This document shows, piece after piece, positions 1,519 to 19,041 of a stretch of DNA of 64,000 nt. A program made the translations under genes and the position numbers. Origin of the DNA: a virus; the IMG/VR virus record IMGVR_UViG_3300031555_005249; one strand, written 5' to 3'. The notes below the pieces were generated by a model. The model saw nothing but the letters and a program-made list of their open reading frames with translations, was not told the origin of the DNA and searched no databases. The stretch's first letter is position 1. Each line of letters begins with the position of its first letter.

Positions 1519-1601
1519 ATAGTATCTCTCCTTTTAAAAATAAATTACAGACCTAAAGCTTTTAGCAAACCTGCAACCTTTTGTTTTTCCCATTCAGAAA
1601 C

Positions 1602-1853
1602 CTAAACTGGTTCTATACGCTCAGGGGTCGGCGCCGTCATCTTTGGCGCGGGAAAATCTCCAGGCATTGCATTATCTGCGCCGCACGTAACGTTTTCTTT
1701 GGCACACGTTAAAACGCATTTAACTTGTAGTGATTGACCATCTTCAATACCACATATTCTTATCTCCTTGGCATCGTTATATAAAAAACTTCCAGGAAAC
1801 ACCTCTAAAATCTTCGCTTGAATTTCTTTTTTTAACTGTTGTCCTTTTGCCAT
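1602..1853 (-). CDS. hypothetical small early protein (MAKGQQLKKEIQAKILEV...)
   Basis: Internal ATG of ORF 1602..1913 preceded by an AGGAG RBS. The stop is TAG and is followed by 19 in-frame sense codons (VSEWEKQKVAGLLKALGL) before a TAA. Confidence 0.5.
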   Translation of the reverse strand: MAKGQQLKKEIQAKILEVFPGSFLYNDAKEIRICGIEDGQSLQVKCVLTCAKENVTCGADNAMPGDFPAPKMTAPTPERIEPV

Positions 1854-1882: not shown

Positions 1883-1915
1883 TTATTATATCATATTTTT
1901 TATAAAAAATCAATC
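1883..1915 (-). promoter_or_regulatory. sigma-70-type promoter, TTGATT-17-TATAAT
   Basis: Minus strand: -35 from plus aatcaa at 1908-1913, -10 from plus attata at 1885-1890, spacer 17 nt. Confidence 0.6.
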
Positions 1916-2740
1916 AATATTTTTCCAATGAAGTTTTTCTCCTGTAATAGGATGTTTTCCTGCGCTCTTTTTTCTACCTGCTAAATAATCTAAGATACCT
2001 GTTGAAGTTTTGAGTCCCGCCCATGCAGCTGCTTCTTTTCGAGAAGAAAATATTTCTCCAGTTTCAACACACTAAATCTTTTTACTTTGGCACTCTTTAG
2101 CTCTTTGCTTTTGATAATCAGAAGTAGTTTTTCCATACATTGGATTTTTTTCTCCAAGTTTAGCTTGTCGAATTTTTTCTTTAGCTTCTTCGCTATGTCC
2201 TTTTCCTTGTGTAGGAGTTCCATGTTTAGTAATATAGGCTTTACGAGTTTCACTGATACTTTTTCTCCCCTCTTCTGACATTTCCCAGTGTCTAGTTTCC
2301 CGAGCAACTCTTTGTTTTTCAATATACTCCGGATCCTACCACTTATTTTTCATTAATTGTGACATCTTTTCACGATGAGAATCTTCTTGCCAAAGAGCTT
2401 TAGCATGCTCACTTAGTTTTTGTCTAGTGTCATTTGAAACATTTCTATTTAAACCGCCTGCTTGAATATTATATCCTTTTTCTTTATTAGTTGAATTATA
2501 ATGTTTTATCCAATAAGCTTCTCGTTCATTAGCCTAGTTTAAAGTTAAATTTGTTTCTAAAATAATATGCTCAAACTAGTCCCAGCCATATTTATTAATT
2601 GCGTGAAAAAAATGAGGACAGTTTTCATATCGTTTTCCATTGTCTCCCCAACGATATTCAGGTTTCTAATTTGTCTATCCAATATAAACCTTACCATTAA
2701 CCTTATTTTTGTGCATATAAATACAATAATTATTTGTCAT
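1910..2740 (-). CDS. GIY-YIG homing endonuclease (with NUMOD3-like repeat and C-terminal HTH), TAG-recoded
   Basis: Own minus-strand translation from ATG at 2740-2738 (RBS AAAGGAG): MTNNYCIYMHKNKVNGKVYIG[TAG]TN[TAG]KPEYRWGDNGKRYENCPHFFHAINKYGWD[TAG]FEHIILETNLTLN[TAG]ANEREAYWIKHYNSTNKEKGYNIQAGG...KNKW[TAG]DPEY...GKGHSEEAKEKIRQAKLGEKNPMYGKT...SKKI[TAG]CVETGEIFSSRKEAAAWAG...WKNID then TGA. Six in-frame TAG and no TAA/TGA across 276 codons. GIY-YIG catalytic motif, NUMOD3-like GHSEEAKEKI and an I-TevI-like C-terminal DNA-binding region are all present. ORF-track piece 2072..2281 lies in this frame. Confidence 0.7.
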
Positions 2741-4166: not shown

Positions 4167-4213
4167 TGTTTTTTTCTCCTTAAAAATTAAATTATTTTTT
4201 TTATTTGGTGTTA

Positions 4214-4246
4214 TTATTATACCAAAAATTTTTTATTTTTTCAACT
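4214..4246 (-). promoter_or_regulatory. sigma-70-type promoter, TTGAAA-17-TATAAT
   Basis: Minus strand: -35 from plus tttcaa at 4239-4244, -10 from plus attata at 4216-4221, spacer 17. Confidence 0.5.
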
Positions 4247-4278
4247 TTGGGTATATTGCCCACGAATAATTTTTATTA

Positions 4279-4539
4279 TTACTCGTTTCTGCTTTTCCCA
4301 TTCTTTACATTTATATTATACCAAAAATTTTTGGATTTTTCAAGTGAAGCCTTTGAACTAACTTTAAATCCTCGTAATACAAGAAATATGAATCCTGTAA
4401 TTAAACAGCTTGTGATAGTACCTAGAACTGCGATCCCTATACCTGCGGCTATTGGCGCAGTAGGAACAGCTATGATACATGCTGCTAGTCCAAGCCAAAA
4501 CATTGCGATAGTTATTAAATAGATAATTGCAACTGCCAT
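4279..4539 (-). CDS. small membrane protein (2 predicted TM helices)
   Basis: ORF-track ORF with strong RBS GGAGG. Hydrophobic N-terminal 60 aa. The C-terminal coding overlaps the tandem promoter region. Confidence 0.45.
   Translation of the reverse strand: MAVAIIYLITIAMFWLGLAACIIAVPTAPIAAGIGIAVLGTITSCLITGFIFLVLRGFKVSSKASLEKSKNFWYNINVKNGKSRNE
4313..4345 (-). promoter_or_regulatory. second (tandem) promoter, TTGAAA-17-TATAAT
   Basis: Same architecture ~100 bp upstream of the previous promoter: plus tttcaa at 4338-4343 and attata at 4315-4320. Confidence 0.45.
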
Positions 4540-4556
4540 TTTTTAACCTCCTTTCT

Positions 4557-5423
4557 TTACCATTCTCTATATCCAGAGTAATCGAAAAGGATTGGCGCCC
4601 CATTAAGATATCCTATATTTGCGGCTCTTAAATCTCCTATTCGATATTCATCAAGGAAGTCATATAGTCTTTTTAGTTCCTCTTGTCCATAACAAGCAAT
4701 AAAATCTGCTACCCATATATCGTTAAAAGCGATAATATCTAGCTCCTGACAAACTTTATCTGATATTTTCTTTTTCTTTTTATAGTCATCACTATTGTAA
4801 TCAATTCCCATTTCATCAAGAGGAATACATCTTTGCTGATAATAAATAGGTGTTTCATCTATCATACCAAGGAAACCTTCTTCAGCGAAATAGGCGCCCA
4901 AACCTGCCTCAAGCGCGTGTTCATAAAGTATAGTTTCCAGCGCGCAATAGTTCCAAGGTTCAATATATTGTTCTTCATCATGAGGCAGTTCGATATCATT
5001 TGCGTATTCAAGATCTGTATACCATATCCTATCTCCTTCATCTGGCTCAGGATATTTGGTATCATAGTCTTTCATTTTTTCGTCCATTTTTTGACGAGCA
5101 AGTTGTATATCACCGTTACATTTGATAAGCATTTGTTGCGCCCATTCTTCATAATAGTCATCTCTTGCTGATTCCCAATCACAATAGGCATCGTCATAAC
5201 TATCCTGCTCAAATACGCAATGAAAAGGAATTTTAATAACATAAGGCTCACCTTTAATAAGCAATACAGCTTTCGATATTCCTCCATCAAGAGAAAATTC
5301 AAAAGGCGGTTGAGCTTCACGTATAGGATCTTCAAGATAAGCCTCTGTATCTTTTAAGTTAAATCCAGAATCAAGTACTGGGATTGTATTTTTTAAGAAA
5401 TTTAGTATTTCTTGTTTTGTCAT
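4557..5423 (-). CDS. hypothetical acidic early protein (288 aa)
   Basis: ORF-track ORF with TAA stop, no TAG, D/E-rich. Promoter at 5461-5493. Confidence 0.55.
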   Translation of the reverse strand: MTKQEILNFLKNTIPVLDSGFNLKDTEAYLEDPIREAQPPFEFSLDGGISKAVLLIKGEPYVIKIPFHCVFEQDSYDDAYCDWESARDDYYEEWAQQMLIKCNGDIQLARQKMDEKMKDYDTKYPEPDEGDRIWYTDLEYANDIELPHDEEQYIEPWNYCALETILYEHALEAGLGAYFAEEGFLGMIDETPIYYQQRCIPLDEMGIDYNSDDYKKKKKISDKVCQELDIIAFNDIWVADFIACYGQEELKRLYDFLDEYRIGDLRAANIGYLNGAPILFDYSGYREW

Positions 5424-5460
5424 TTATATATTTATTTCCTCTCTGATTTTTTCTTATACT

Positions 5461-5493
5461 TAATTATAACATAAATTAAATAAAAAATCAATA
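5461..5493 (-). promoter_or_regulatory. sigma-70-type promoter, TTGATT-17-TATAAT
   Basis: Plus aatcaa at 5486-5491 and attata at 5463-5468, spacer 17. Confidence 0.55.
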
Positions 5494-5524
5494 AAAAACA
5501 GAGCGGCGCGAATGCGTCGCTCTG
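5493..5524 (-). terminator. rho-independent terminator after gene 5563..5781
   Basis: Hairpin CAGAGCG-N12-CGCTCTG with an A-tract on plus, which reads as a T-tract after the hairpin on minus. Confidence 0.5.
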
Positions 5525-5562
5525 AGAGGCGTAAAGTGATTATTCGGCGCCGTCATAAACTG

Positions 5563-5781
5563 TTATCGTTGGTTTATCTTTTTCGATACCTGTTGAATAA
5601 TATATTCCTGTTCTGATTCAAATCCATCATCGAGCAATCCATACTGCTTCATAACCTCGTCAAAAATTTTTTTATCTGCAATATCGACATCATCGTAATA
5701 TAAATCTACAAGATAATTAATTGCTTTTTCAACATTTTCATAATGCTGAGCTATTGCTATATTTAAAGGATTAAAGTTCAT
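5563..5781 (-). CDS. hypothetical small protein
   Basis: ORF-track ORF with TAA stop. Its start overlaps the stop of the upstream gene (ATGAACTTTAA). Confidence 0.5.
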   Translation of the reverse strand: MNFNPLNIAIAQHYENVEKAINYLVDLYYDDVDIADKKIFDEVMKQYGLLDDGFESEQEYIIQQVSKKINQR

Positions 5782-6013
5782 TAGGCGTAACCTCCTCTAT
5801 GGTATAATAACAAGCATCATAGATTTCGTCTGAATTCACGTCGGGAAGTTTAGCAAAAATGACATCTGCGTGCATATCAAGATAAGCTCCAACACACTCT
5901 TCTGCGCAGTATTCCATTTCCTCTTTATTTGTAATATCGACGCGGTCACAGATAAATTCTTCGATAAGTCCATGTAGATAAGAATTTCCAATAGTAACTT
6001 TAATAGCGTTCAT
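5771..6013 (-). CDS. hypothetical small protein (MNAIKVTIGNSYLHG...)
   Basis: Internal ATG of ORF 5771..6058 with a GAGAGGAAA RBS. TAA stop. Confidence 0.5.
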   Translation of the reverse strand: MNAIKVTIGNSYLHGLIEEFICDRVDITNKEEMEYCAEECVGAYLDMHADVIFAKLPDVNSDEIYDACYYTIEEVTPNEL

Positions 6014-6046
6014 TTTATTTCCTCTCTTTTCTTTTTTATTACATAT

Positions 6047-6079
6047 ATATTTTATCATATTTTTTGAAAAAAATCAATT
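6047..6079 (-). promoter_or_regulatory. sigma-70-type promoter (TTGATT-17-TAAAAT, weaker -10)
   Basis: Same sequence family as the other early promoters (atatattttatcatattttttgaaaaaaatcaatta). Confidence 0.4.
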
Positions 6080-6121
6080 AGAAAGCAAAAGGTGGTGATA
6101 ATATAGCAGATAAGAAGTTAA

Positions 6122-6154
6122 ATTTGACTTTATTTTAATTTTATATTATAATTA
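6122..6154 (+). promoter_or_regulatory. plus-strand sigma-70-type promoter, TTGACT-17-TATAAT (divergent from 6047-6079)
   Basis: ttgact at 6124-6129, tataat at 6147-6152, spacer 17. Drives the nested plus-strand gene block. Confidence 0.55.
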
Positions 6155-6187
6155 ATATGAATAAAAGAAATAAAAGGAGAAAGATAC

Positions 6188-6667
6188 GTGGAAATAATTG
6201 GATTAATTATTTTAATAGCTGGATTAATATTTATTGGATTTGACTATGGACGTATGTTAATTAAGAATCGGCGCCTATAGGCAAAATTAGGTGATGATTC
6301 GGCGCCTTACACACCTACAAGGAATATTATGGTAATGGATGAATATTGCCCTTATTTAGTTAAATTAACGACACTATGTATTAAAGCTCATGGAGATGCT
6401 AATATTAAAATTACAAAATATGATAGTAGTCAAGAGAATGTTGGTGTGATTAAAGTGTATTTTGATAATGATGATGAACTATTGGTTTATTAGTATGGTA
6501 AAGCAAAGATTAAAGAGTTAACAAATAGAGAAAAGAAGAATTATGCTAATAAAATTTTTCTTGACTATAAGTTACCAGAGGGTGCGGCCGGCGCAGTAAT
6601 AAAAGATTTAGGATTAATGAATCACATGGTTTATTTCGGCTTTTGTGATGAAAGGAGTGTAAAATGA
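6188..6667 (+). CDS. hypothetical protein with N-terminal TM segment, TAG-recoded (2 in-frame TAG)
   Basis: GTG start after an AAAAGGAGA RBS. Frame stays open across 159 codons with only two TAG codons, no TAA/TGA. Terminal TGA overlaps the ATG of 6664 (ATGA). Confidence 0.4.
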
Positions 6668-7071
6668 GTAATTGGGCAAAAACAGGTGAAGCTTATTTTG
6701 GAGATTCTTTTGATAGAAAAATAACTCTTGGACCTGGGGAATTGAGTTTTAGCGCTAATAATTGCGTGATAGATCAAGATGCTTTATCTTCTATAGTAGG
6801 ATATGATAGTGCTAATACTTATGCAATGGCAACTAGTTATGAAAAGCCAATAAGTATAGGCTACTGTGGAGATATAAGTGCTAAGGCAGATTCTGTTAGC
6901 GCTTTACAAGTGGATATTTCAGCAAGAGTAGATCAGCTTGAAGAGAAGCTTGATACAGTAATGGCGCGCATTGATGAGTTAAAGCAGTCTGTTTCACGTA
7001 CTTCAAGATTGCGTTCGTTATTAAGAACGTTGCATTATAATAGCGAAGTTGAAAGTGGCGCCAACTTTTGA
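6664..7071 (+). CDS. hypothetical protein
   Basis: ORF-track ORF, RBS GAAAGGAG, no TAG. Confidence 0.55.
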   Translation: MSNWAKTGEAYFGDSFDRKITLGPGELSFSANNCVIDQDALSSIVGYDSANTYAMATSYEKPISIGYCGDISAKADSVSALQVDISARVDQLEEKLDTVMARIDELKQSVSRTSRLRSLLRTLHYNSEVESGANF

Positions 7072-7328
7072 TGTAAGCTGCTAAGGGTGCAGATTGGCGC
7101 ATGAACCAACACGATTTTGCTACGATTTTAATTGAACTTGCTTTTGATAAAAGGCGGCATGACAACAGATTGTTGCAAAACTATTAAAGATGATGCGATA
7201 AGGAAAATATAGAAAAGAGTATATCGTCGAAAAATTGGCAAATTAAGGTAGTATTATGGAAAAAATTTTGGACAAAAATAGATACAATTACTACCTTAAT
7301 TTTTATATAATAGTGAAAGGAGTTAGTA

Positions 7329-7526
7329 ATGACTCGTGAAGAAATAATATTTTAGTTAAAGGAGATGCGCGCAAAAGGTTATACGTATAAGTTGATTGCG
7401 AAAGAGGCAAAATTAGATAATCCTGATTAGCTTTATAAGTTTATCAATAGAGATGCTCCTGCTATTTGGGTGAAGCAGCAATTAGAGAACTATTTGCGCC
7501 GAGTAAACGGAAATGGGTCAAATTAA
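7329..7526 (+). CDS. small HTH-like protein, TAG-recoded (2 TAG)
   Basis: RBS AAAGGAG. Translation MTREEIIF[TAG]LKEMRAKGYTYKLIAKEAKLDNPD[TAG]LYKFINRDAPAIWVKQQLENYLRRVNGNGSN, TAA stop. Confidence 0.4.
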
Positions 7527-7551
7527 AGAAAGAGTGATTTACACTCGAAAA

Positions 7552-7689
7552 ATGGCGTACGAATTACGCAAGTTGGGTTTTAAGATTATTAGAGTGATAC
7601 CTGATGAGAAGAAACCTTATTTTGATAATTATGTATTTGAAGATAGTCTTGAGTTACAAGAGGCTATGCGCAAATTATCTTAGGTTTAA
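7552..7689 (+). CDS. small hypothetical protein (1 TAG before TAA)
   Basis: Translation MAYELRKLGFKIIRVIPDEKKPYFDNYVFEDSLELQEAMRKLS[TAG]V then TAA. Weak RBS, so tentative. Confidence 0.3.
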
Positions 7690-7714
7690 AATAAGGAATC
7701 GGAGGTATCGGATA

Positions 7715-8398
7715 ATGATTAAAGAATTTAAGAATAATCCTGTAAGAGATTTTGGTAACGTATATCAGACTATGTTGTCACAGATAAAAAAGAGATATGA
7801 GAAAGATCCTGTACAAGCTGGAGAATTAGCTATTAGTTTTATTGAATATGTATTAACAGGTGATATTAGTAGTGACGATGATATTATTGAAGGCTTTGTT
7901 GAAGGATATAAGGTTACGACTAAAAAGAATCAAGATAAATATGATGCTAAGGTCGCTGCAACAAGAGACGCGCTAAAGCCAATTGCAGATATGTATAATA
8001 GGGGTATGACACAGGCGGCGATTGCGCGTGAGCTAGGTGTTCAGCCGCCCGCTATTTCAAAGAAAATGTCTACCATTCGTACACAGTTTCCAGAGTTGTT
8101 AGATAATGAAGGAAAATTAAAGAAAGTTTCCGAAAATTCTGGAAATAATGGAAAGTTTCCAAAAAATGAGGAAAGTATAGAAAAAGTTTCTGAAAATTCT
8201 GGAAATATTAAGAAAGAAGAAGAAAGTTTAGAAACGTTTCCAAGTTTCCAAAGTTTCCACAATAATAATAACTATAATAACAATAATAACTAGAATAATA
8301 ATAATGAAGTTTCCATTTCGCCTCGCGGCGAGTCAGGGCTTCGCCCCGACACCCCTGCGGCTTCGCCGATAAAGAAGATTGGAGGGTTTGAGTTTTGA
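7715..8398 (+). CDS. HTH DNA-binding protein (sigma-region-4-like motif GMTQAAIARELGVQPPAISKKM) with repeat-rich C-terminus; 1 in-frame TAG
   Basis: RBS GGAGGT. Internal ATG of ORF 7604..8293, continuing through the TAG at 8291 to a TGA at 8396-8398. Contains GTTTCC iteron-like repeats at the DNA level (see repeat feature). Confidence 0.5.
8120..8260. repeat. iteron-like array, 6 copies of GTTTCC(A/T) followed by an AT-rich AATAATAAC tract
   Basis: GTTTCC at about 8126, 8155, 8186 (GTTTCT), 8236, 8244 and 8253. The last three are tandem with ~8.5-bp periodicity. The AT-rich low-complexity stretch spans 8261-8310. Confidence 0.4.
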
Positions 8399-8790
8399 GG
8401 GGAGTATATGTAATTGCTGATGATATGGGAAGAGTTTACTATGTGGGACAGAGTGAATAGTTGGAAAATAGAACATGGGGACATTTAGCTAAAATAAAAC
8501 AAGATGAGAATAAATATAAGAAAAATAAATTATATTGGATATTGGGTAGATTGAATGATTTAAAAGTTGGGCTTCATTGTTATTTATTAGAAGAGTATCC
8601 GTCATGGAATAGAATCGATATTAAGACAAGAGAAAAAGAAAATATTCGATTGTTAAAACCTGTATTAAATACTTAGGTTCCTACTGATTGCATTTGTTAT
8701 ATGAAGAATATTTGGAATGCGGTAACAGCGGCAGTTCAGGCAGATGAAAATGGAAGATGGGATTTTAAAGGATGTAGGAAAATATGGTGA
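8395..8790 (+). CDS. small GIY-YIG nuclease-family protein, TAG-recoded (2 TAG)
   Basis: TTG start overlapping the upstream TGA. Translation ..RGVYVIADDMGRVYYVGQSE[TAG]LENRTWGHLAKIKQDENKYKKNKLYWILGRL... carries the GIY-YIG signature (GVYVI...VYYVGQS...R...H). ORF-track piece 8461..8676 lies in this frame. TGA stop. Confidence 0.5.
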
Positions 8791-8877
8791 AGATGTGGAG
8801 AAATTATAGTAGAGTGGAGAGTTGTCCTGCGACCGAATCCAGAACCACTTCCACTCATCTCTCGTCTTCGTTATCCC

Positions 8878-8910
8878 TATTGATTTATAATAAAATATAT
8901 GATATAATAA
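8878..8910 (+). promoter_or_regulatory. plus-strand sigma-70-type promoter, TTGATT-17-TATAAT
   Basis: ttgatt at 8880-8885, tataat at 8903-8908, spacer 17. Confidence 0.55.
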
Positions 8911-8942
8911 TTATAGAAAATATAAGAAAGGAAATAATACCA

Positions 8943-9314
8943 ATGAATATTGAAGATATGATCATGAATGGTGCATCTGAAGAAGAGATTGCAGAAGCTA
9001 TAGACCAGATTCGCGCCAAGAGAACCTTGAAAATGGAAGAAGAGCGTCAGGCGCGCGAATCTCAAAAGAAGAAAGATGAAGAGCAGACCGCGAAAGAGGC
9101 GCTTAAGGCAGAGGCTCGCGCGCATTTCATCAATGCTGTACTTGCATATAGTGAGGCTTTTGACCTTTTGGAAGAGGGAGAGAGCTGGACTGAAGAAGAT
9201 CTAAAAGAGGTGGAAGAGTACCTTATTCAGATTGAAGGAATAATTCCTATGTATGCTAAGATGATGAAGAAGAAAAAGGAATTCGGATTTGGAGATCTTT
9301 TTGGATTGATATAA
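8943..9314 (+). CDS. hypothetical E/K-rich coiled-coil protein
   Basis: Internal ATG (MNIEDMIMNGASEEE...) of ORF 8784..9314 with RBS AAGGAAATAATACCAATG. TAA stop, no TAG. Confidence 0.5.
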   Translation: MNIEDMIMNGASEEEIAEAIDQIRAKRTLKMEEERQARESQKKKDEEQTAKEALKAEARAHFINAVLAYSEAFDLLEEGESWTEEDLKEVEEYLIQIEGIIPMYAKMMKKKKEFGFGDLFGLI

Positions 9315-9606
9315 GCGCCGGTCCAGGTTATAGAAGTATAAATATAGAGAATAGAGCGTTGGGTAAAACCCGGCGCTCTTATTGTTTTACCTCTTGACGC
9401 GACGAAGGCGCATTGGCGCCGAGGAGCGAAAGTTAAAAATTTTTCAAAAGTAGATAATTGTATTACCTTAATTTTAATATAACAATGACAAAGAAATACA
9501 TTGTCACTAAGAAAGATTGTAACGAATTATTAAACTACTTAATTTTATAGTCATTATAAAAGTCATTACAATCTTTCCAATACTAAAAGAAAGGAGATGA
9601 ATTATA

Positions 9607-10314
9607 GTGAAACTTGTTGAAGGTAAAATAACTTTAGCTAATTTGGCTACTTGGCTAGGAGTATCTGCAGGCACCCTGCGCAATAATAAAAGTAAGTATT
9701 TAAATATTTTAGCTCGCTATTGCCGATATCATGAAGAAGGAACTACCAAAAAGACTCTTTATATTGATGAAGTATACGAAGCAGAATATTCGGCGCTATA
9801 GGGTCCAAAACCTTATCAAAGAGTAAAAGAGTTAACAAGAGAGGGTTGGAGCGCAGAAGGGCTAGATAGTTGTGCTCTTGTTGCAAGTCGTAATTTTCCT
9901 ATTCTATAGCAAGAGGGATACACAATTACAGAAAATACCAATTATAATTATACTTGTTAGAGCAGAACGGAACTTTGGGGCAGTCCTATGAAGCGCACAA
10001 ATGGTGAGCTTGGCTATTGTCGTTATGAGTATTGTAAAATTGGACCTTAGGGCAAGCTTGTTCCGCTTAATGAGGAAGAATAGAAGATTAAGCGCTAGAT
10101 CACAGAGAAATACTTTGGTAATTTAGAAGATTTTACTCTTGGGATAGCTGATGATATTAAAACTGGTAAGATTACTGCGGAAGAGGCTGGTATTGCATTA
10201 GCTAATTTAGGTAGTCATGGAGAATATTTAGCTTGGAAGAATGAACTTGAGGCTAGACTAGGTTGTAAGATTTATAAAGGAACAAGAATACATAATGAAG
10301 AGAGTGCGTTTTAA
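9607..10314 (+). CDS. HTH-domain protein (N-terminal ITLANLATWLGVSAGTL), TAG-recoded (about 7 TAG)
   Basis: GTG start after an AAGGAG RBS. ORF-track piece 9607..9801 continues in frame through TAG codons to a TAA at 10312-10314. No TAA/TGA inside the 236 codons. Confidence 0.45.
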
Positions 10315-12289: not shown

Positions 12290-12322
12290 TATATTATACC
12301 ACACTCTTGGTCATTTGTCAAG
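12290..12322 (-). promoter_or_regulatory. sigma-70 consensus promoter, TTGACA-17-TATAAT, with AT-rich UP-like tract
   Basis: Plus tgtcaa at 12316-12321 and attata at 12293-12298. Upstream (minus sense) AAAAAATTTTTCAAAAAC tract. Confidence 0.65.
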
Positions 12323-12368
12323 AGGTTTGGTAAAAGTTTTTGAAAAATTTTTTTGGTATGAGGGAGAA

Positions 12369-12779
12369 TTACTCTCCCTCTACCTCGTCTACTACCCCGT
12401 AATTAAGGGAGTAGTATGCAACTTTCTTTTCAAGGGTGCGCTTAAAGTCTGCGCTCTTGGACACGATAGCGGTAATCATCTGTGACGATACGTTATCTCC
12501 GTTAGCTCTCTTATACTCTTTGATAGAATCGACCTTGAGGAGTGAGCCAACGGTCATTCCCTTTTCATCTACACACTCGGCGAGAGCGTCCTTGATAAGT
12601 TCGGTTACTGCGAGAGCGTCTTTCTGCGCAGGAGTGAGAGAAGCGGACTTTGAGTTCTTACGGGAGAGAAGCTCTATCTCGTGAGCCATAACATCTGCCC
12701 ACTCGGTTTTGCCGTTCTCTATGAGGAACGCTTTGATGTTCTCAAAATTCTCTCTCTTGGTGATTTTCTTTTCTGCCAT
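12369..12779 (-). CDS. small early protein, paralog family member
   Basis: ORF-track ORF with TAA stop inside the hairpin loop. Paralog of 3777..4166 and 13351..13755. Confidence 0.55.
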   Translation of the reverse strand: MAEKKITKRENFENIKAFLIENGKTEWADVMAHEIELLSRKNSKSASLTPAQKDALAVTELIKDALAECVDEKGMTVGSLLKVDSIKEYKRANGDNVSSQMITAIVSKSADFKRTLEKKVAYYSLNYGVVDEVEGE

Positions 12780-12856
12780 AGTTTTCTACCTTTGCGATCT
12801 GTGACCGCCCTTTCAAAATTTTTTATTTCAAGAGGATTTTCCTCTTGATTACATAT

Positions 12857-12889
12857 ATATTATATCACAAGTTTGTGATTTTGTCAAGG
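12857..12889 (-). promoter_or_regulatory. P1 promoter, TTGACA-17-TATAAT
   Basis: Plus tgtcaa at 12882-12887 and attata at 12859-12864. Confidence 0.65.
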
Positions 12890-12996
12890 GGTTTTTGAAA
12901 AGTTTTTCAAAAATTTTTTATTTTTTTCAGTGGTTGCAACTACGGGACGATGCCTCGCAAGGTCGTTCTATCCGTCACCGCCCCTTGACTACGATA

Positions 12997-13029
12997 ATAT
13001 TATATCATAAAAAGATAAATTTGTCAATA
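12997..13029 (-). promoter_or_regulatory. P2 promoter, TTGACA-17-TATAAT, ~130 bp upstream of P1, with conserved leader ATTATCGTAGTCAAGGGG
   Basis: Plus tgtcaa at 13022-13027 and attata at 12999-13004. The 25-nt block ccccttgactacgataatattata recurs at 15301-15325. Confidence 0.55.
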
Positions 13030-13080
13030 GAAAATGGGAAAATAATTTGCACAAATTTGAGAGGAATTTTGGTGAGAAAA

Positions 13081-13097
13081 TTGTGCAACTTGCACAA
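13081..13097. promoter_or_regulatory. palindromic operator-like site TTGTGCAAcTTGCACAA
   Basis: Perfect 8-1-8 palindrome, with an additional half-site TTTGCACAAA at 13047-13056. The same motif occurs at 15409-15425 and 19508-19525, and half-sites at ~15375, ~16819, ~18296 and ~19079. Confidence 0.45.
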
Positions 13098-13140
13098 AAA
13101 CGCACAAATCGGCCCAGCGGCGGCCGCCGTTGGGCCGGTC

Positions 13141-13169
13141 AAAAAAAGACCTCTGCCGTCGCAGAGGTC
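13141..13169 (-). terminator. rho-independent terminator (minus) plus adjacent GC hairpin 13111-13136
   Basis: Plus A7 then hairpin GACCTCTGC-cgtc-GCAGAGGTC, which reads on minus as hairpin followed by a U-tract. Second hairpin GGCCCAGCGGCGGCCGCCGTTGGGCC. Confidence 0.5.
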
Positions 13170-13350
13170 TATCCTCGAGGTTGACCATTCTCGCTTTCTC
13201 GCCACTCCTTGCGCATAGGGGACTTTGGTTTTAATGGTCTGCAAAGGCGTGTGATTTGAACACACATCTGTTGGAAACGAAACCAACTGTTCTTCCATTA
13301 AACTACCCTTTGTTATGTATGAGGGGCGCATTTGCGCCCCTGTGCCTCAC

Positions 13351-13755
13351 TCACGCAAGGCGAAAGTAAGTGACCTTTTTGTCAATGGTCTTGACTACAT
13401 CACCGCAGTCAACGAGCTTTTTAAGCATAGAGGAAACTCGCTGTGAAGATGTTTCCTTACCATCTGCCCACTCAAACTCTGCGATACGAGAATCCTTTGC
13501 TATCGCACCGCACTGCATACCCTTTACATCGGTTGCTTCTGCGAGAACATCATGAATGAGGTCAAGGAAAGTATCAACTTCCTCTGCGCGCTTTGCGCTG
13601 ACCTTACCACTCTTGCTTTCAAGCTGACCGAGCTTCTTTTCGGCAAACTCGATTACTTTATCCATAGGGATTGTGGTCGGCTCTCCGCTTGCCATCTTGA
13701 TGATTTCCTCATACATCTGCTTCTGTGTGTACTTGATTTCCTTGATTTCTGCCAT
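13351..13755 (-). CDS. small early protein, paralog family member
   Basis: ORF-track ORF with TGA stop. Paralog of 3777 and 12369. Confidence 0.55.
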   Translation of the reverse strand: MAEIKEIKYTQKQMYEEIIKMASGEPTTIPMDKVIEFAEKKLGQLESKSGKVSAKRAEEVDTFLDLIHDVLAEATDVKGMQCGAIAKDSRIAEFEWADGKETSSQRVSSMLKKLVDCGDVVKTIDKKVTYFRLA

Positions 13756-13832
13756 AATTTTTTTCCTCTCTTGCTATTAGGTTGCAACCCTTTAATTTTA
13801 TTTATCAGAGGTATTCCCTCTTGATTACATAT

Positions 13833-13865
13833 ATATTATACCATACTTTTTGGTATTTGTCAATA
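13833..13865 (-). promoter_or_regulatory. sigma-70 consensus promoter, TTGACA-17-TATAAT
   Basis: Plus tgtcaa at 13858-13863 and attata at 13835-13840. Confidence 0.65.
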
Positions 13866-13906
13866 GGTTTTTGAAAAATTTTTTATTTTTTTTCTTGGGT
13901 AGAGGG

Positions 13907-14626
13907 TTATTCACCCTCTACCTCTTTGCGCTTATGAAAGGGATATACCCATTCACCCTCTGGAGTTAAGCAACCGAGTTTCGTGCGCTCTTGGAAGATA
14001 TTACAACCTCTTTTTCCAAGTTCACAAAGAATACGGAGTTCCCATTGAACATCGGAAAGTGCGGTATGTTCCTCAACAAAATCTTTATCTTGGTTAAGAA
14101 ATGCGGTTACACCCTCAACAGAGGTCGGTATATATTTACCACTTGGAGTGCGGAGTTCGTGTTCGTTGCAAAATGCGATATAATCTGCGGTAGAGCATAT
14201 GTCGTATTGTGCATTACACCATATATCTATAACCTCGATTTTGTCAAGTGGATTCAAAATACCGAGCGCAGTTGCGGTTCTGCGGAATTTGTCCTCGTCA
14301 AACTCGGAGTTATAGGCAAAGCCATACTGTATGCCATATCGGTCAATATCTCTTGCTATTTGCTCAAATATCTGTTTTTCGGTACGGAGTATTGCCGTTC
14401 CGTTCTCAACATTCAAGTCAAACTTTGCGAGTTTTTCTGCTTTGACGAACATATCATTCAAGAGCCAAATGCGGTTGTGATAATGTTTGCCTACAAGATA
14501 GTCTTTGCCTTTGAGTATCTTATACTTAAAGGTTGTTAAGTCAACATCTGCTATACAATAGCCTATGTTAAGTAGTGTTTGGGTACAACACCCTGCGGTT
14601 TCGGTATCAAATACCATAATGTTCAT
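13907..14626 (-). CDS. DEDDh-type 3'-5' exonuclease (DnaQ-like)
   Basis: MVFDTETAG (Exo I D-x-E motif) and HTALSDV (Exo III). 239 codons with no TAG, TAA stop. Confidence 0.65.
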   Translation of the reverse strand: MNIMVFDTETAGCCTQTLLNIGYCIADVDLTTFKYKILKGKDYLVGKHYHNRIWLLNDMFVKAEKLAKFDLNVENGTAILRTEKQIFEQIARDIDRYGIQYGFAYNSEFDEDKFRRTATALGILNPLDKIEVIDIWCNAQYDICSTADYIAFCNEHELRTPSGKYIPTSVEGVTAFLNQDKDFVEEHTALSDVQWELRILCELGKRGCNIFQERTKLGCLTPEGEWVYPFHKRKEVEGE

Positions 14627-14683
14627 TTTTTCTTTTCCTCTCTTTCTGTCATAGGGAGTAGCCCTCGCTCTCCACTCGACATA

Positions 14684-14716
14684 TATATTATATCACATCT
14701 TGACGAATTTGTCAAG
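14684..14716 (-). promoter_or_regulatory. sigma-70 consensus promoter, TTGACA-17-TATAAT
   Basis: Plus tgtcaa at 14709-14714 and attata at 14686-14691. Overlaps the 3' end of upstream gene 14712..15158. Confidence 0.6.
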
Positions 14717-15158
14717 AGGTTTTACAAAATTTTTTCAAAATTTCAAAAATTTTTTCGGGCGGAAATGCGTCACCCTTAGTCCACTCAAGGCGGTTGCGCT
14801 CTTCATCGTCAAACAGTATGCCCTCACTCTTGGCTACGGACGATTTGGGTGTGCCATATGGAACGATATGCAATTCATCAAAAATAACGGACTTCAAGTG
14901 CTTTTTGAGCCATTTGCGCTTGGCTTTAGTGACCGCCTTGTTATAGTCCTCAGTTGCGGCTTTAGACAGCCACGATATAACACCTATATGAACGCCATTG
15001 CGCTGAGCCTTATTCAATGCTCTTGCAAGTGCAGACATATTGTGCATAGGTCTTGCTTCTTCATATGGGCGCGTTCGCTTGGCTTCAAGGTCATCGAGCC
15101 AGCCTTCGACCGCATAAAGGTCAGCAACGGTGCCGTCAAGGTCTAAATAAATTGTCAT
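14712..15158 (-). CDS. HAD-superfamily 5'(3')-deoxyribonucleotidase-like protein
   Basis: N-terminal IYLDLDGTVADL (DxDGT HAD motif I). ORF-track ORF with no TAG. Confidence 0.6.
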   Translation of the reverse strand: MTIYLDLDGTVADLYAVEGWLDDLEAKRTRPYEEARPMHNMSALARALNKAQRNGVHIGVISWLSKAATEDYNKAVTKAKRKWLKKHLKSVIFDELHIVPYGTPKSSVAKSEGILFDDEERNRLEWTKGDAFPPEKIFEILKKFCKTS

Positions 15159-15190
15159 TTGGTTTAGTTCCTTTCTTCCTTACTGCTCTT

Positions 15191-15223
15191 ATATTATACC
15201 ATACTTTGAGCGATTTGTCAAGG
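15191..15223 (-). promoter_or_regulatory. P1 promoter, TTGACA-17-TATAAT
   Basis: Plus tgtcaa at 15216-15221 and attata at 15193-15198. Confidence 0.6.
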
Positions 15224-15315
15224 GGTTTTTGAAAAATTTTTTCAAAAATTTTTGAGTGTCCACTGATTAGCAAGTCCATTTCACTGCTTTTGTTTCTCAC
15301 CCCTTGACTACGATA

Positions 15316-15348
15316 ATATTATACCACAAAGGGCGCAAAAAGTCAAGC
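15316..15348 (-). promoter_or_regulatory. P2 promoter, TTGACT-17-TATAAT, with conserved leader
   Basis: Plus agtcaa at 15341-15346 and attata at 15318-15323. Same conserved block as at 12981-13005. Confidence 0.55.
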
Positions 15349-15408
15349 GGTTTTGGGAATTTTCTTTTCGTCAATTTGCACAAACTTTTGGCGAAAAAAT
15401 GCGTGGAA

Positions 15409-15425
15409 TTGTGCAATTTGCACAA
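15409..15425. promoter_or_regulatory. palindromic operator-like site TTGTGCAAtTTGCACAA
   Basis: Second copy of the 8-1-8 palindrome, with half-site TTTGCACAAA at ~15375-15384. Confidence 0.45.
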
Positions 15426-15459
15426 AAACGGCGCCACACCGATCGGTGGCGCGCCGACC

Positions 15460-15486
15460 AAAAAGAGGGAGATTAATCTCCCTCTA
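15460..15486 (-). terminator. rho-independent terminator overlapping stop of 15473..15682; GC hairpin 15431-15452
   Basis: AAAAAG then hairpin AGAGGGAGAT-TA-ATCTCCCTCT. The TAA stop sits in the loop. Confidence 0.5.
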
Positions 15487-15682
15487 TTATGATTTTATTG
15501 ATAACTTTTGCATAGTCTTCTTGCGCTCTTCGGAATGCTTGTGCCGCAGTATGCAAAGGGCATTCTTCGCAATCAATTTCGCCGCACTGTATATGAATGC
15601 AGGGGTCAATCATTATAGCTTCAAGAGTGTCGTGCTGTTCTGTTGCGGTTATTGTGACTATGATTTTCATATTTACCTCCAA
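15473..15682 (-). CDS. hypothetical small Cys-rich protein
   Basis: ORF-track ORF with TAA stop. Confidence 0.5.
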   Translation of the reverse strand: MEVNMKIIVTITATEQHDTLEAIMIDPCIHIQCGEIDCEECPLHTAAQAFRRAQEDYAKVINKIIIEGD

Positions 15683-15933
15683 ATTAAATTGATAAGATAA
15701 TAAGTATTCATCGCAAATAATGCGACATTAAGTATTACAAGATTTATGCGCCTTGCGCTAAAGCAAAATGCGGTTGCGATTGCCGAGCCGATGAAGAATA
15801 ATACTGTCATATCGGCGCCACACATAACACCTATTGCGCAAGCGGTATAGATTAGTGCGGTGATATCGGTGATATCAAATTCATAGGGGCGGTCAAGGCT
15901 GAAATAGGTTTTTAGTTTACCAATCAAAGTCAT
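15673..15933 (-). CDS. small membrane protein
   Basis: ORF-track ORF, hydrophobic throughout. Confidence 0.5.
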   Translation of the reverse strand: MTLIGKLKTYFSLDRPYEFDITDITALIYTACAIGVMCGADMTVLFFIGSAIATAFCFSARRINLVILNVALFAMNTYYLINLIWR

Positions 15934-16105
15934 CTACCTCTTCTTCCTCATAATCATTAGTATAATAATATTGCGTGGTTTTGAACTCTTTACCACAACC
16001 GCATTTATATTTGCGACTTGCGACAATTTGCTCTCCGTCCTCTTCATATTTTGCCGATAAATATTTAACTTGGGCGGTGCTACCGCAATTTGGACATTTA
16101 ATCAT
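15917..16105 (-). CDS. zinc-ribbon protein (CPNC...CGC)
   Basis: ORF-track ORF with acidic C-terminal tail. Confidence 0.5.
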   Translation of the reverse strand: MIKCPNCGSTAQVKYLSAKYEEDGEQIVASRKYKCGCGKEFKTTQYYYTNDYEEEEVDDFDW

Positions 16106-16305
16106 TTTAATTTAAGCTCCTTTCTAATATTGATAATTCCACGAAATTCTGCGGTATAGATTGCTTCACAGTGAGGGCAACAAACTTTAGCCTCAAAATC
16201 TGCTTCATACCCGTCAAAATTCCATATCTTTGCATCCACATCTCCACAGAACAAGTCATCTCTGGTTATAAGTTTATCGCAATTTGGGCATTTAATCATT
16301 TTCAA
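16102..16305 (-). CDS. zinc-ribbon protein (CPNC...CPHC)
   Basis: ORF-track ORF. Confidence 0.5.
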   Translation of the reverse strand: MKMIKCPNCDKLITRDDLFCGDVDAKIWNFDGYEADFEAKVCCPHCEAIYTAEFRGIINIRKELKLK

Positions 16306-16489
16306 ATTCTCCTTGATATTCTCTTATTGTGCAATATCCACTCCAACGCCATTCAAGGCATTGTTGATTGATATATTCTTGTGCCTGTTCTTGACTATCA
16401 AAGATAGGCGGTTTATTATCTCCTATGAATCCTTTATGCAAGAAGCCGTTTGGACAAGAGCGAGTATGAATATAAATTACATATTGCAT
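16292..16489 (-). CDS. hypothetical protein (MQYVIYIHTRSCPNGF...)
   Basis: Internal ATG of ORF 16292..16825. The upstream part of that ORF overlaps the tRNA and promoter, so it is discounted. Confidence 0.45.
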   Translation of the reverse strand: MQYVIYIHTRSCPNGFLHKGFIGDNKPPIFDSQEQAQEYINQQCLEWRWSGYCTIREYQGEFEND

Positions 16490-16509
16490 AAGTATTACCT
16501 CTCTTTTTT

Positions 16510-16584
16510 TGGTGAAGCGAATGGGAATTGAACCCACAACGCAGTTGAATAGTGTCAACCTCATTACCTTTGTGATACCGCTTC
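16510..16584 (-). tRNA. candidate amber-suppressor tRNA (anticodon loop contains CUA), CCA encoded
   Basis: Minus-strand read GAAGCGGTATCACAAAGGTAATGAGGTTGACACTATTCAACTGCGTTGTGGGTTCAATTCCCATTCGCTTCACCA. Hand fold gives a 7-bp acceptor stem (GAAGCGG/TCGCTTC, one GU) with discriminator A + CCA, a T-arm GTGGG-TTCAATT-CCCAT with canonical TTCAA T-loop, and an anticodon arm GTTGA-CACTAT-TCAAC whose loop centre is CTA. The D-arm is short (3 bp) and the anticodon loop is 6 nt by hand, so it is non-canonical or my fold is imperfect. Sits between genes under a consensus promoter ~7 nt upstream. Confidence 0.55.
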
Positions 16585-16595
16585 TTATTACATTT

Positions 16596-16628
16596 ATATT
16601 ATACCATATAATCTTGCTTTTGTCAAGA
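16596..16628 (-). promoter_or_regulatory. sigma-70 consensus promoter driving the tRNA, TTGACA-17-TATAAT
   Basis: Plus tgtcaa at 16621-16626 and attata at 16598-16603. The predicted TSS falls a few nt upstream of the tRNA 5' end. Confidence 0.6.
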
Positions 16629-16779
16629 GGTTTTCGAAAAATATTTGCAACTATTTTTCTTATCTCCGATACTTTCCTACTCAAAGCTTTCGTGTCCGTT
16701 CTCTTGTTGTACACCAAGTTTCTGATTTCCATTCCTTGCAAGTTAATTTCTCCGCACGAGGTTCCCCCTCTTGACATTA

Positions 16780-16812
16780 TTATTATATCATACAATCGGG
16801 AAAATGTCAAGT
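16780..16812 (-). promoter_or_regulatory. second upstream promoter (P2-type), TTGACA-17-TATAAT
   Basis: Plus tgtcaa at 16805-16810 and attata at 16782-16787. TGCACAA half-sites at ~16819 and ~16860. Confidence 0.5.
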
Positions 16813-17013
16813 GGTAATGTTGCACAAAGTTTCAACAAAAAAATGGCGGGAAGTGTACAAAATGCACAAAACGGAACGCGCCGGCCGGGCTCGTTCCGCT
16901 CGGATTTCAGGCAAAAAAGAAAAAACCCAGAACTCATGAAAAGCTCTGGAAATTTGTTGAGAGGTCTACTTCGTGGAAATTCGGACTTGGCGCGACCGCC
17001 TTCGTCCGTCAGC

Positions 17014-17316
17014 TTAATGGCTGAAGTGTTTCAACACGTCTTGTACATTGTACTCATTTTCATCATCACTCATAATTATAATTTTATTTTCCCATTCAGC
17101 AGGAATGCTTAAAATTTTAAATGTTTCCTTTAAGAATGAAATCATATTCGTACAATCATTTTTTTGATTGTCAGAATGAAAGAGAAGGGCGCCCAACTCT
17201 TCACAATAAAGTGCATGAAGTGGATAGTCTTGCGCCGAGAGGGTTTCCCAATCAAGGGGAGTAAGTGATGATTCAAAAGAAGTGATGACAAGAGCGTGGA
17301 TGAAGTGATACTTCAT
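17014..17316 (-). CDS. hypothetical protein
   Basis: ORF-track ORF with TAA stop. Confidence 0.5.
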   Translation of the reverse strand: MKYHFIHALVITSFESSLTPLDWETLSAQDYPLHALYCEELGALLFHSDNQKNDCTNMISFLKETFKILSIPAEWENKIIIMSDDENEYNVQDVLKHFSH

Positions 17317-17357
17317 ACCGCGTGACCTCCTTGTATCTCTTATTTCTTTTTACATTT

Positions 17358-17390
17358 ATATTATAATATAAAATTTTATAAAAATCAATG
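17358..17390 (-). promoter_or_regulatory. sigma-70-type promoter, TTGATT-17-TATAAT
   Basis: Plus aatcaa at 17383-17388 and attata at 17360-17365. Confidence 0.55.
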
Positions 17391-17398
17391 GGTGTGGA

Positions 17399-17605
17399 TT
17401 ATTCCACACCCAAGAGTTCCTTTATTTTATTGACTACTTGCTCTTGTGCTTGTTTCAGAATGTAATAATCACAATTATCAAGTGTTGCAATATAATCATC
17501 TACCGCTATGCGGATTTCAATTTCATTACTATTATGATTAAGATCATACTCCTTAATGATTTCTTTTTCATTGATTTCTACGCCCGTAGTAATCTCTATA
17601 TACAT
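17399..17605 (-). CDS. hypothetical small protein (MYIEITTGVEINEKE...)
   Basis: Internal ATG of ORF 17399..17725 with an AAAAGGAGAAAACAAT RBS. The stop lies in a hairpin loop. Confidence 0.45.
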   Translation of the reverse strand: MYIEITTGVEINEKEIIKEYDLNHNSNEIEIRIAVDDYIATLDNCDYYILKQAQEQVVNKIKELLGVE

Positions 17606-17648
17606 ATTGTTTTCTCCTTTTGCGAATTTCCAAATTTTTCCAATGCGC

Positions 17649-17906
17649 CTACCAAGCGACTCGGATATGATATCTACCTTCAAAAAGGTTTTTTTCAATC
17701 TCAGCCTTGTAGCCAAATTTTTCAAGATTCGCTCTTATGAGTTCGACCTCATCTTTGGAAACCTCTTTTACTCCACTGAAATAACCTTGTGAAGCCCTTT
17801 TTTTGATGAAGCGCAACATCTCTTTCATTGCCCACGAATGCATGAATTGGTTTTGATTATTTTCTGCCATCTCTCTTGCTTCCTTTGCGGTCATAGGGTT
17901 TTTCAT
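17649..17906 (-). CDS. hypothetical protein; stop is TAG with a 22-codon in-frame extension to TGA
   Basis: ORF-track ORF. Stop codon is TAG (plus cta at 17649-17651), followed in frame by AHWKNLEIRKRRKQYVYRDYYGRRNQ then TGA. Confidence 0.5.
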   Translation of the reverse strand: MKNPMTAKEAREMAENNQNQFMHSWAMKEMLRFIKKRASQGYFSGVKEVSKDEVELIRANLEKFGYKAEIEKNLFEGRYHIRVAW

Positions 17907-17935
17907 AAGTATTTCCTCTCTTTCTTTTAGTATAT

Positions 17936-17968
17936 ATATTATACCATACTTTTATATATTTGTCAAGT
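17936..17968 (-). promoter_or_regulatory. sigma-70 consensus promoter, TTGACA-17-TATAAT
   Basis: Plus tgtcaa at 17961-17966 and attata at 17938-17943. Confidence 0.6.
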
Positions 17969-17980
17969 AGTTTTTGAAAA

Positions 17981-18205
17981 TTATTTGAAAAAAATTTCAA
18001 GCACAATTACATCGTCGCAACAACCCTCAATAGTTATTTCCATACTATCTATCTTGCGGTTAGCATACTCTTTAATATGCTCACATTCTTTAACATACCA
18101 ATCGATTGATTGAGCACCAAGCCATTGTTCTGCTTTGAGTAAGAAGTTGTCATAAATGCGGATTTTATCTATGTTGTAGATAAGCGGAAGTTGTGCAAGT
18201 GTCAT
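17981..18205 (-). CDS. hypothetical small protein
   Basis: ORF-track ORF. Confidence 0.5.
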   Translation of the reverse strand: MTLAQLPLIYNIDKIRIYDNFLLKAEQWLGAQSIDWYVKECEHIKEYANRKIDSMEITIEGCCDDVIVLEIFFK

Positions 18206-18235
18206 AAGTCATTTTCCTCTCTTTCTTTTACACTT

Positions 18236-18268
18236 ATATTATACCACAAATATCGGGAATTGTCAATA
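18236..18268 (-). promoter_or_regulatory. sigma-70 consensus promoter, TTGACA-17-TATAAT
   Basis: Plus tgtcaa at 18261-18266 and attata at 18238-18243. TTTGTGCAAA half-site at ~18296. Confidence 0.6.
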
Positions 18269-18384
18269 GGTAATAATCAACAAAGTTTTGCGCCGATTTT
18301 TGTGCAAAATGCCAGCCCACAGATAAAACGGCTCGGCGCGCCCGATGCCGAGCCGCCAAAAAACAAAAGAGGGCAATCGCCCTC

Positions 18385-18765
18385 TTAGGTTTGATATTTA
18401 GTTATCTCTGTGGAAGAGCTTTGCGCCACCATTAGCGAAATACACCTTTGCATTGTATCGAGTTCAACCACTCTGATGACTTTGCCTTTAGCATACGCAT
18501 ATCCGCACTCCCAAGCTGATCCAAGGTCACCATTGGCGCCTTCGCAAAAATAGAGAATTTCATCACATTCATCTATTGCTTGAACGTCGTGTTGGAATAC
18601 CTTGCGCGCCCATTCGGAGTTAGGTAAAGCTTTAGCATTAGGTATCTCTAATTCGTGGGGAACGTAAACTTTATATCCTAACTGTCGTAAGAGTTTTGCG
18701 TGCTTGTTTATTCTGTCCTTTTGGCTTTCGGTAAACATAGCACTTGCTATATAAAACTTTTTCAT
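18385..18765 (-). CDS. nucleoside 2-deoxyribosyltransferase-like protein
   Basis: N-terminal FYIASAMF plus GSAWECGYAYAKGK resemble the Nuc_deoxyrib_tr family signature. TAA stop. Confidence 0.5.
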   Translation of the reverse strand: MKKFYIASAMFTESQKDRINKHAKLLRQLGYKVYVPHELEIPNAKALPNSEWARKVFQHDVQAIDECDEILYFCEGANGDLGSAWECGYAYAKGKVIRVVELDTMQRCISLMVAQSSSTEITKYQT

Positions 18766-18790
18766 ATCTCACCTCTTGATAGTGGATAGA

Positions 18791-19009
18791 TTATTCATCT
18801 ATCCACTCTTTTACTTTATAGGCTGTAACCTCGACAATATCAGCGGTGAATTTTATCTCTCCCGTAAAGTTATAGATTACGTAAGTATTACCTCTGTTAT
18901 TTGTCGTAAACTCTCTTGCAAACTGAATTGCCATACTAAGATCGTCAAAATCAGCAATATGTTTGCCGTCCGCATAGACGCCATAGTCAAGAATGTCAAA
19001 TTTTACCAT
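18791..19009 (-). CDS. hypothetical small protein
   Basis: ORF-track ORF. The stop lies in a hairpin loop (AGTGGATAGAT-tattc-ATCTATCCACT). Confidence 0.5.
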   Translation of the reverse strand: MVKFDILDYGVYADGKHIADFDDLSMAIQFAREFTTNNRGNTYVIYNFTGEIKFTADIVEVTAYKVKEWIDE

Positions 19010-19041
19010 AATATTAATACCTTCCTTCCTTTACTGTGCCT

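Follow-up and report, generated by a model that had tools for sequence, protein, structure and literature searches.

Gene 1 and gene 2, two minus-strand genes of the window (the whole 64,000-nucleotide stretch of phage DNA analysed here), each carry a TAG that is followed by an in-frame open stretch, and comparison with their relatives assigns the two TAGs different meanings. The TAG at codon 84 of gene 1 is most likely decoded as glutamine, with a 102-aa protein as the functional product. The TAG of gene 2 is, judged from the same kind of comparison, a real stop, and the read-through stretch behind it is an incidental, non-coding spacer. An earlier, sequence-only reading had taken the two TAGs as a translational timer or isoform switch. 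A purpose-built switch is not supported for either of them and nothing indicates selection for a timer, as the gene 1 TAG is not conserved in recoded relatives and the relatives of gene 2 have TAA at the corresponding position.

The phage is, on the evidence of its DNA, a large siphophage of about 135 kb with a Firmicutes-type host, and it uses TAG as glutamine in part of its genome (genetic code 15). Both TAGs and both open stretches pointed out in the sequence-only reading are present, with 18 and 26 sense codons after the respective TAG. The count of 19 given there for gene 1 is reached only when the TAG itself is included, and the 22 codons given for gene 2 (at about 17583-17648) proved to be 26, at 17571-17648. 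The statement that almost every other early gene ends at TAA or TGA was borne out, the stops of 35 minus-strand genes being 25 TAA and 10 TGA. That reading missed the TAG-bearing homing endonuclease gene, the lipase-like gene and the plus-strand island listed in Table 1. The lengths of the two stretches are no evidence and lie within chance, because runs as long as these occur in about a third of control genes: in 33 other minus-strand genes, the run of codons without TAA or TGA past the true stop was at least 18 codons long in 36% and at least 26 codons long in 33%. The question can thus be settled by comparison with relatives only. Sequencing error was considered as a source of the TAGs in genes 1 and 2 and was ruled out by their identity in many independent assemblies.

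Table 1. Coordinates of the features discussed in the text (positions in the window unless a contig is named)
Feature	Position	Strand	Description
Gene 1, complete ORF	1545..1853	-	102 codons including one in-frame TAG, then TAA
In-frame TAG of gene 1	1602..1604	-	codon 84, probably read as Gln
C-terminal tail of gene 1	1545..1601	-	18 codons and TAA; short linker, then predicted amphipathic helix
Promoter-like site upstream of gene 1	1885..1913	-	TTGATT-17-TATAAT with TG
GIY-YIG/NUMOD3 homing endonuclease gene	1910..2740	-	6 in-frame TAGs; directly upstream of gene 1
Plus-strand island	6188..10314	+	inside minus-strand region; 7 genes
Sole tRNA in the window	13241..13312	-	Rfam tRNA, 44.6 bits
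Next gene 3' of gene 2	17399..17605	-	AAAGGAG RBS and ATG (17605) within the gene 2 read-through stretch, other frame
Read-through stretch after gene 2	17568..17648	-	26 codons (17571-17648) and TGA; intergenic spacer and out-of-frame overlap with next gene
Nucleotide-conserved motif TTGGAAAAATTTGGAAATTCGCA	17621..17643	-	just 3' of the gene 2 stop; about 23-28 nt
Gene 2	17649..17906	-	85 codons, TAG stop 17649-17651
Promoter-like site upstream of gene 2	17938..17966	-	perfect TTGACA-17(TGn)-TATAAT; one of 13
Lipase-like gene	21899..22558		2 internal TAGs
Large terminase	25324..26997		8 TAGs
tRNA array	L006 3246..6245	same strand as gene 1 operon	starts 18 nt after the operon's last gene

The TAG of gene 1 and the conserved tail behind it

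Gene 1 starts with an ATG at 1853-1851 and runs for 83 sense codons to the TAG at 1604-1602; another 18 sense codons (VSEWEKQKVAGLLKALGL) lead to a TAA at 1547-1545. The gap between this TAA and the ATG of the next gene (1518) is 26 nt long and includes an RBS before the ATG, and the same spacing was found in relatives. At least 11 independent assemblies have this TAG unchanged. ENA assemblies with identical DNA already call a protein of 102 aa with Q at the TAG (P0136).

A homolog search with the gene 1 read-through product as the query returned 230 homologs, and the details that follow come from the best 120 of these. All but one of the 120 listed homologs were 101-103 aa long and covered 100% of the query, with 66-87% identity over the full length. 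The only short one was P0004, of 83 aa and 100% identical, which is the standard-code call of gene 1 itself. The junction stop is not kept among relatives: at the TAG column, a sense residue is present in 119 of the 120 listed homologs, most often Q (42), K (34) or A (33), and in a few cases E, V, T or D. The closest relative among those listed (87% identity) has Q there, encoded by CAA, and the codons opposite the TAG in five relatives for which the DNA was compared were CAA, AAG, AAA, GCG and GAA. The TAG was confined to one near-clonal lineage.

The tail holds the best-conserved piece of the C-terminal half of the protein, the motif EKQxVAxLLKSLGL. Four of its residues do not vary among the listed homologs (E89, K90, V93 and L100), and conservation reaches at least 90% at L97, G101 and L102. 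In the window, none of the invariant tail residues has changed, the frame is unbroken and the TAA is in place. Comparison of six DNA sequences gave a pS of 0.69 and a pN of 0.245 for the tail (pN/pS 0.35), compared to a pN/pS of 0.235 for the core, which indicates that both tail and core are under purifying selection in this frame. The sequence-only reading had asked whether the extensions are conserved in relatives, and the answer differs between the two genes, as the stretch after gene 2 carries 1-nt indels. Its claim that gene 1 natively ends at TAG and gains an extra tail is contradicted by these comparisons: the tail is the ancestral, conserved C-terminus, and relatives have a sense codon at the junction.

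In the AlphaFold2 prediction built from a 70-sequence alignment, the protein starts with a helix and continues through three strands and a Pro-rich linker of low confidence to a C-terminal helix, the last at residues 87-99 with block pLDDT values of 82-89. Searches of the gene 1 protein against Pfam, PHROGs and NCBIfam gave nothing significant, a profile search of PDB sequences gave no match, and Foldseek of the model found nothing with E < 0.1 in PDB or BFVD. A tblastn search with gene 1 against the phage collection also returned no match. By its homologs, gene 1 is a member of an uncharacterised conserved phage protein family of about 102 aa. The C-terminal ...LLKSLGL bears what we take to be a loose likeness to C-terminal sliding-clamp-binding motifs, from which we make no claim.

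We propose that the TAG of gene 1 would be an ordinary internal glutamine codon, in the linker of a conserved 102-residue protein and at a position that tolerates substitution, the true stop being the TAA at 1545, on the assumption that the TAG is decoded during translation of the mRNA. It would most likely have arisen by CAA/CAG to TAG drift after the lineage had gained amber decoding, since in L026, a recoded relative, the codon at this site is GCG and single TAGs are scattered over other genes of the region. The 83-aa form would then be a product of a standard-code gene caller, or of RF1 acting without suppression. Where RF1 does terminate, the product would be an 83-aa protein without the conserved helix, and full-length output would be tied to amber decoding.

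Gene 2 and the stretch that follows its stop

Gene 2 runs from an ATG at 17906-17904 through 85 codons to the TAG at 17651-17649, behind which 26 sense codons (AHWKNLEIRKRRKQYVYRDYYGRRNQ) lead to a TGA at 17570-17568. L028-L030 have the same TAG, and more than 20 contigs are recorded with the 85-aa product. All 15 homologs of gene 2 were 81-85 aa long and aligned only to residues 1-85 of the 112-aa read-through query; weak PHROG matches also stopped at the TAG position. Four distinct relatives (L003, L004/L005, L037/L038 and L039/L040) have ...AW followed by TAA at the homologous position. The stretch after the stop has a 1-nt insertion in L003 and a 1-nt deletion in L004, and the genes 3' of gene 2 differ between relatives, being non-homologous, with one relative having no adjacent gene. 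A search of viral contigs with gene 2 found no relatives.

The TAG of gene 2 can be regarded as a real stop because its homologs end there, relatives have TAA, and the following stretch contains indels together with the RBS and ATG of the next gene. The sequence-only reading had proposed that suppression adds a tail to gene 2. Suppression would indeed add 26 aa, but the tail is not conserved and the TAG stands at the homologous stop. The 112-aa product of a uniform code-15 call (P0137) is most likely an over-extension of gene 2.

Directly behind the gene 2 stop, about 28 nt are conserved at the nucleotide level (GCG-ATTGGAAAAATTTGGAAATTCGCA). Within them, the motif TTGGAAAAATTTGGAAATTCGCA is near-invariant DNA in L004, L037 and L039 despite the different downstream genes, and it has no second copy in the window. 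A role in 3' regulation or processing is possible.

The TAG of gene 2 would have arisen from TAA by a single A-to-G change. Gene 2 presumably terminates there while it is translated with host RF1 unopposed, expression timing being taken from promoter-like sequences only. If this TAG were suppressed, the protein would gain a basic tail of 26 aa that is not under selection, and ribosomes would run on across the start of the next gene.

Decoding of TAG across the genome

When TAG was counted as sense, the total ORF length in the window rose from 47 to 79 kb; the longest ORF, of 512 aa before, became one of about 3150 aa with 82 TAGs inside it. Another ORF, of 1655 aa, contains 32 TAGs, and both are plus-strand ORFs in the part of the window that begins at 22.8 kb. 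Between 8 and 82 TAGs each are present in the terminase, tape-measure-sized and tail genes, and conserved genes that are fragmented by the standard code are made whole again by TAG-as-sense translation. Late genes have 193 in-frame TAG, 66 CAG and 315 CAA codons, a TAG share of 34% of Gln-type codons. Their use of TAG is very uneven: several late genes are free of it (29092..30453, 31017..32069, 32156..33229, 35915..36838, 55558..58033 and 63262..63711, plus strand), among them the capsid-like gene, which is 44-50% identical both to Phass-1 and to a fecal phage contig, and adjoining late genes have 15-30 TAGs per 1000 codons.

The meaning of TAG was taken to be glutamine because TAGs in the large terminase align with glutamine in homologs. 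This protein shares 43-46% identity with its counterparts in Geobacillus virus E3 and Enterococcus phages and 42.5% with the Phass-1 terminase. Seven terminases were aligned, that of the window and six homologs (Geobacillus virus E3, Enterococcus phage VRE9_4 and Phass-1 among their sources); one TAG of the window falls in a column with Gln in 6 of 6 homologs, and two further TAGs stand opposite Gln in the closest homolog. The Phass-1 terminase has a TAG of its own, which aligns with an invariant Gln column. The homing endonuclease was also tried as a guide to the meaning of TAG and was dropped, the endonuclease of the relative L026 being only 36% identical; the residues opposite the TAGs there were L, S, N, E, Q and R, which is uninformative. 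The base after sense TAGs was A in 59 cases, G in 51, T in 49 and C in 34, and the TAGs of gene 1 and gene 2 are both followed by G, so this sequence context did not discriminate sense from stop.

Gene 2 lies in a block (11.2-21.4 kb) of 24 genes with 70 CAA/CAG codons and no internal TAG. This block is, on codon counts, truly standard code, because late genes of the same genome have TAG at 34% of their Gln-type codons. On the minus strand, 13 perfect promoter-like sites of sigma-A type, TTGACA-17(TGn)-TATAAT, are spread over 12.3-20.2 kb (12293..20179), one of them directly upstream of gene 2. One more perfect promoter-like site is on the plus strand at 22720..22748, ahead of the first plus-strand gene.

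Gene 1 belongs to a separate block (0.9-6.0 kb), outside the strictly TAG-free early block. The promoters of its block have degenerate -35 hexamers, TTGATT or TTGAAA, and the -35 hexamer of the promoter-like site of gene 1 is weaker than those of the perfect promoters of the TAG-free block. L001 and L002 have the same promoter arrangement ahead of gene 1, and in about 100 nt read upstream of gene 1 in L001 there is a terminator-like hairpin followed by the promoter. The surroundings of gene 1 are not purely standard code, because its endonuclease neighbour has six TAGs. This endonuclease gene stands between the preceding gene and the promoter of gene 1; at the same place, L026 has a GIY-YIG gene (9069..9938), 36% identical and without TAG. 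In the plus-strand island, five of the seven genes have TAG (13 TAG vs 25 CAA/CAG), and one of the island genes (8395..8790) has a GIY-YIG-like start. Promoter-like sites with degenerate -35 hexamers (TTGATT, TTGAAA or TTGAAT) occur at 0.85-10.7 kb as a second class, which suggests that two promoter classes coincide with the TAG-free and the TAG-tolerant blocks.

The search for a suppressor tRNA covered about 74 kb of the ~135-kb genome. In the window, neither ARAGORN nor Rfam nor a custom scan for anticodon loops gave a tRNA-CUA; there was none either in flanks reaching 3.6 kb beyond its left and 6.6 kb beyond its right end (L006, L013 and L016), or in the relatives L001, L002, L024 and L026, the tRNA arrays of two relatives included. 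In L006, a tRNA array begins about 265 nt past the left end of the window, straight after the operon headed by gene 1, and ARAGORN called eight tRNAs in it. A class II tRNA-Tyr(GTA)-like sequence at about 6155..6245 of L006 was seen by eye and was not called by ARAGORN. The tRNA arrays of the relatives hold 15-20 tRNAs, none with a CUA anticodon. The tRNA of the window has an 8-nt anticodon loop, TTTCGTTT, for which ARAGORN gave a four-base anticodon, 'tcgt'; it is not a CUA suppressor. It sits in the early block with the perfect promoters, and a strong terminator-like hairpin comes after it, at 13170..13147. A tRNA with an 8-nt loop is also present in a relative ('ggat', L024 8846..8920).

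No match was returned by a nucleotide search of the first 12 kb of the window against the phage collection, by a scan of viral contigs with a neighbouring 105-aa protein, or by metagenome scans aimed at the remainder of the genome. Past the right end of the window, within 6.6 kb, L016 has a minus-strand block (4210..7653) after a SprT-like gene, which encodes dUTPase/dCTP deaminase-like, NrdD-like and NrdG-like proteins.

Alternative readings and relation to known systems

The TAG of gene 1 might be a selected gate, whereby an 83-aa protein is made early through RF1 termination and the 102-aa protein later through amber suppression, as a timed isoform switch. Such a gate would fit the position of the conserved helix, which lies wholly downstream of the TAG, as well as the sigma-A-like promoter of the gene's own, the operon that runs straight into the tRNA array past the left end of the window, and the temporal code-switch model already published for such phages. 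We nevertheless consider it quite unlikely. A sense codon occupies the site in the 119 full-length listed homologs and in the recoded L026, the linker column is variable and tolerates Q, K, A, E, V, T and D, and in relatives single TAGs are strewn over different genes of the region, as expected from drift. Because the TAG occurs in one near-clonal lineage and at a position that tolerates many residues, there is no sign of selected coupling in gene 1. If the codon-84 TAG did hold back the helix until amber-to-Gln decoding is switched on, with gene 2 still stopping at its TAG, the two genes would form a natural internal reporter of a timed code change within one infection; we regard this as unlikely. 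The TAG could also be a recent nonsense mutation with an untranslated tail that is beginning to decay in this lineage, and two details of the tail agree with that. Gly95 in the window's protein occurs in none of the 119 full-length listed homologs, and the sole polymorphism over about 4.2 kb in more than 10 otherwise identical assemblies, at position 1549 (CTG to CGG, in L007 and L022), is the nonsynonymous L102R. It alters the near-invariant last residue, at which Arg is found in none of those 119 homologs. Together they could mean that the tail is under relaxed constraint in this lineage, although the signal is weak, with one polymorphic site (n = 1). The intact invariant residues, frame and TAA of the tail count against decay, as does its rarity score, which ranked 19 of 120 and is no outlier; moreover, the same genome decodes 193 late-gene TAGs and six in the adjoining endonuclease gene. 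A nonsense mutation is therefore very improbable in our judgment.

As to gene 2, its extension might be a functional conditional tail or a device coupling translation to the downstream gene. The first ~10 read-through codons (A[HPY]WKNLEIR) look conserved, since the DNA motif lies there, and read-through would cross the RBS and ATG of the next gene. The motif is without synonymous variation, however, which points to a nucleotide-level element and not to a peptide. The relatives stop at TAA, which amber suppression does not read, the frame is broken in L003 and L004 by their 1-nt indels, the downstream genes differ or, in one relative, are absent, and the homologs end at 81-85 aa in 15 of 15 cases. 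We give this reading next to no weight. Decoding of codon 84 as glutamine in gene 1 and termination at TAG in gene 2 remain the readings that we prefer.

In programmed stop-codon read-through, which gives isoforms such as the A1 protein of phage Q-beta, the stop itself is conserved and both forms are functional. Gene 1 resembles such cases in having a stop codon followed by an in-frame coding extension, with two products possible, but its TAG is lineage-specific and its relatives encode the long form only. Genes 1 and 2 thus fail as a programmed read-through pair because the junction stop is not conserved. Condylostoma and Blastocrithidia have ambiguous stop/sense codons, the meaning of which probably depends on where in the mRNA they stand. 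The phage shares with them one triplet that is sense in one gene and terminator in another of the same genome; unlike in these ciliates and trypanosomatids, the determinant proposed in phages is the time or availability of the suppressor machinery.

Known recoded gut phages have TAG-to-Gln, mixed-code genomes (10.1101/2021.08.26.457843, Borges et al.; 10.1101/2022.06.29.495998, Mgcod; PMC9523058, Peters et al.; PMC10607447). As in these phages, the TAGs of the present genome are mostly in structural and late genes, an early block is free of TAG, and TAG is aligned with Gln. Phass-1 is a TAG-to-Gln phage of 135,976 bp with 36 tRNAs, three of them tRNA-Sup-CTA genes (PMC10607447), and one of its suppressor tRNAs lies in a tRNA array downstream of its minus-strand early genes. 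The present phage is like Phass-1 in its genome of about 135 kb, in having a large tRNA array downstream of minus-strand early genes and in its terminase (42.5% identical); it differs in that no suppressor tRNA was seen in the ~74 kb examined, and the relationship is only distant. Gene 2, an early gene that is free of internal TAG and ends at TAG, is like the case in the Methods of Borges et al. (10.1101/2021.08.26.457843), where integrase C-terminal 'extensions' point to the recoded codon as a legitimate stop; unlike in the integrase case, the homologous TAA stop of gene 2 was checked here directly in the DNA of relatives. The case is an instance of known mixed-code TAG-to-Gln phage biology and involves no new mechanism.

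Neither translation table 11 nor table 15, if used uniformly, yields the right proteins in mixed-code phages: table 11 would cut gene 1 to 83 aa, with loss of its most conserved motif, and table 15 would over-extend gene 2 to 112 aa. Both wrong forms already sit in public protein catalogues. The corrected gene models would be 1545..1853 for gene 1 and 17649..17906 for gene 2. With one TAG that is probably read and one that presumably terminates, each in a gene with its own host-type promoter, the two genes would offer a simple test of the published temporal code-switch model.
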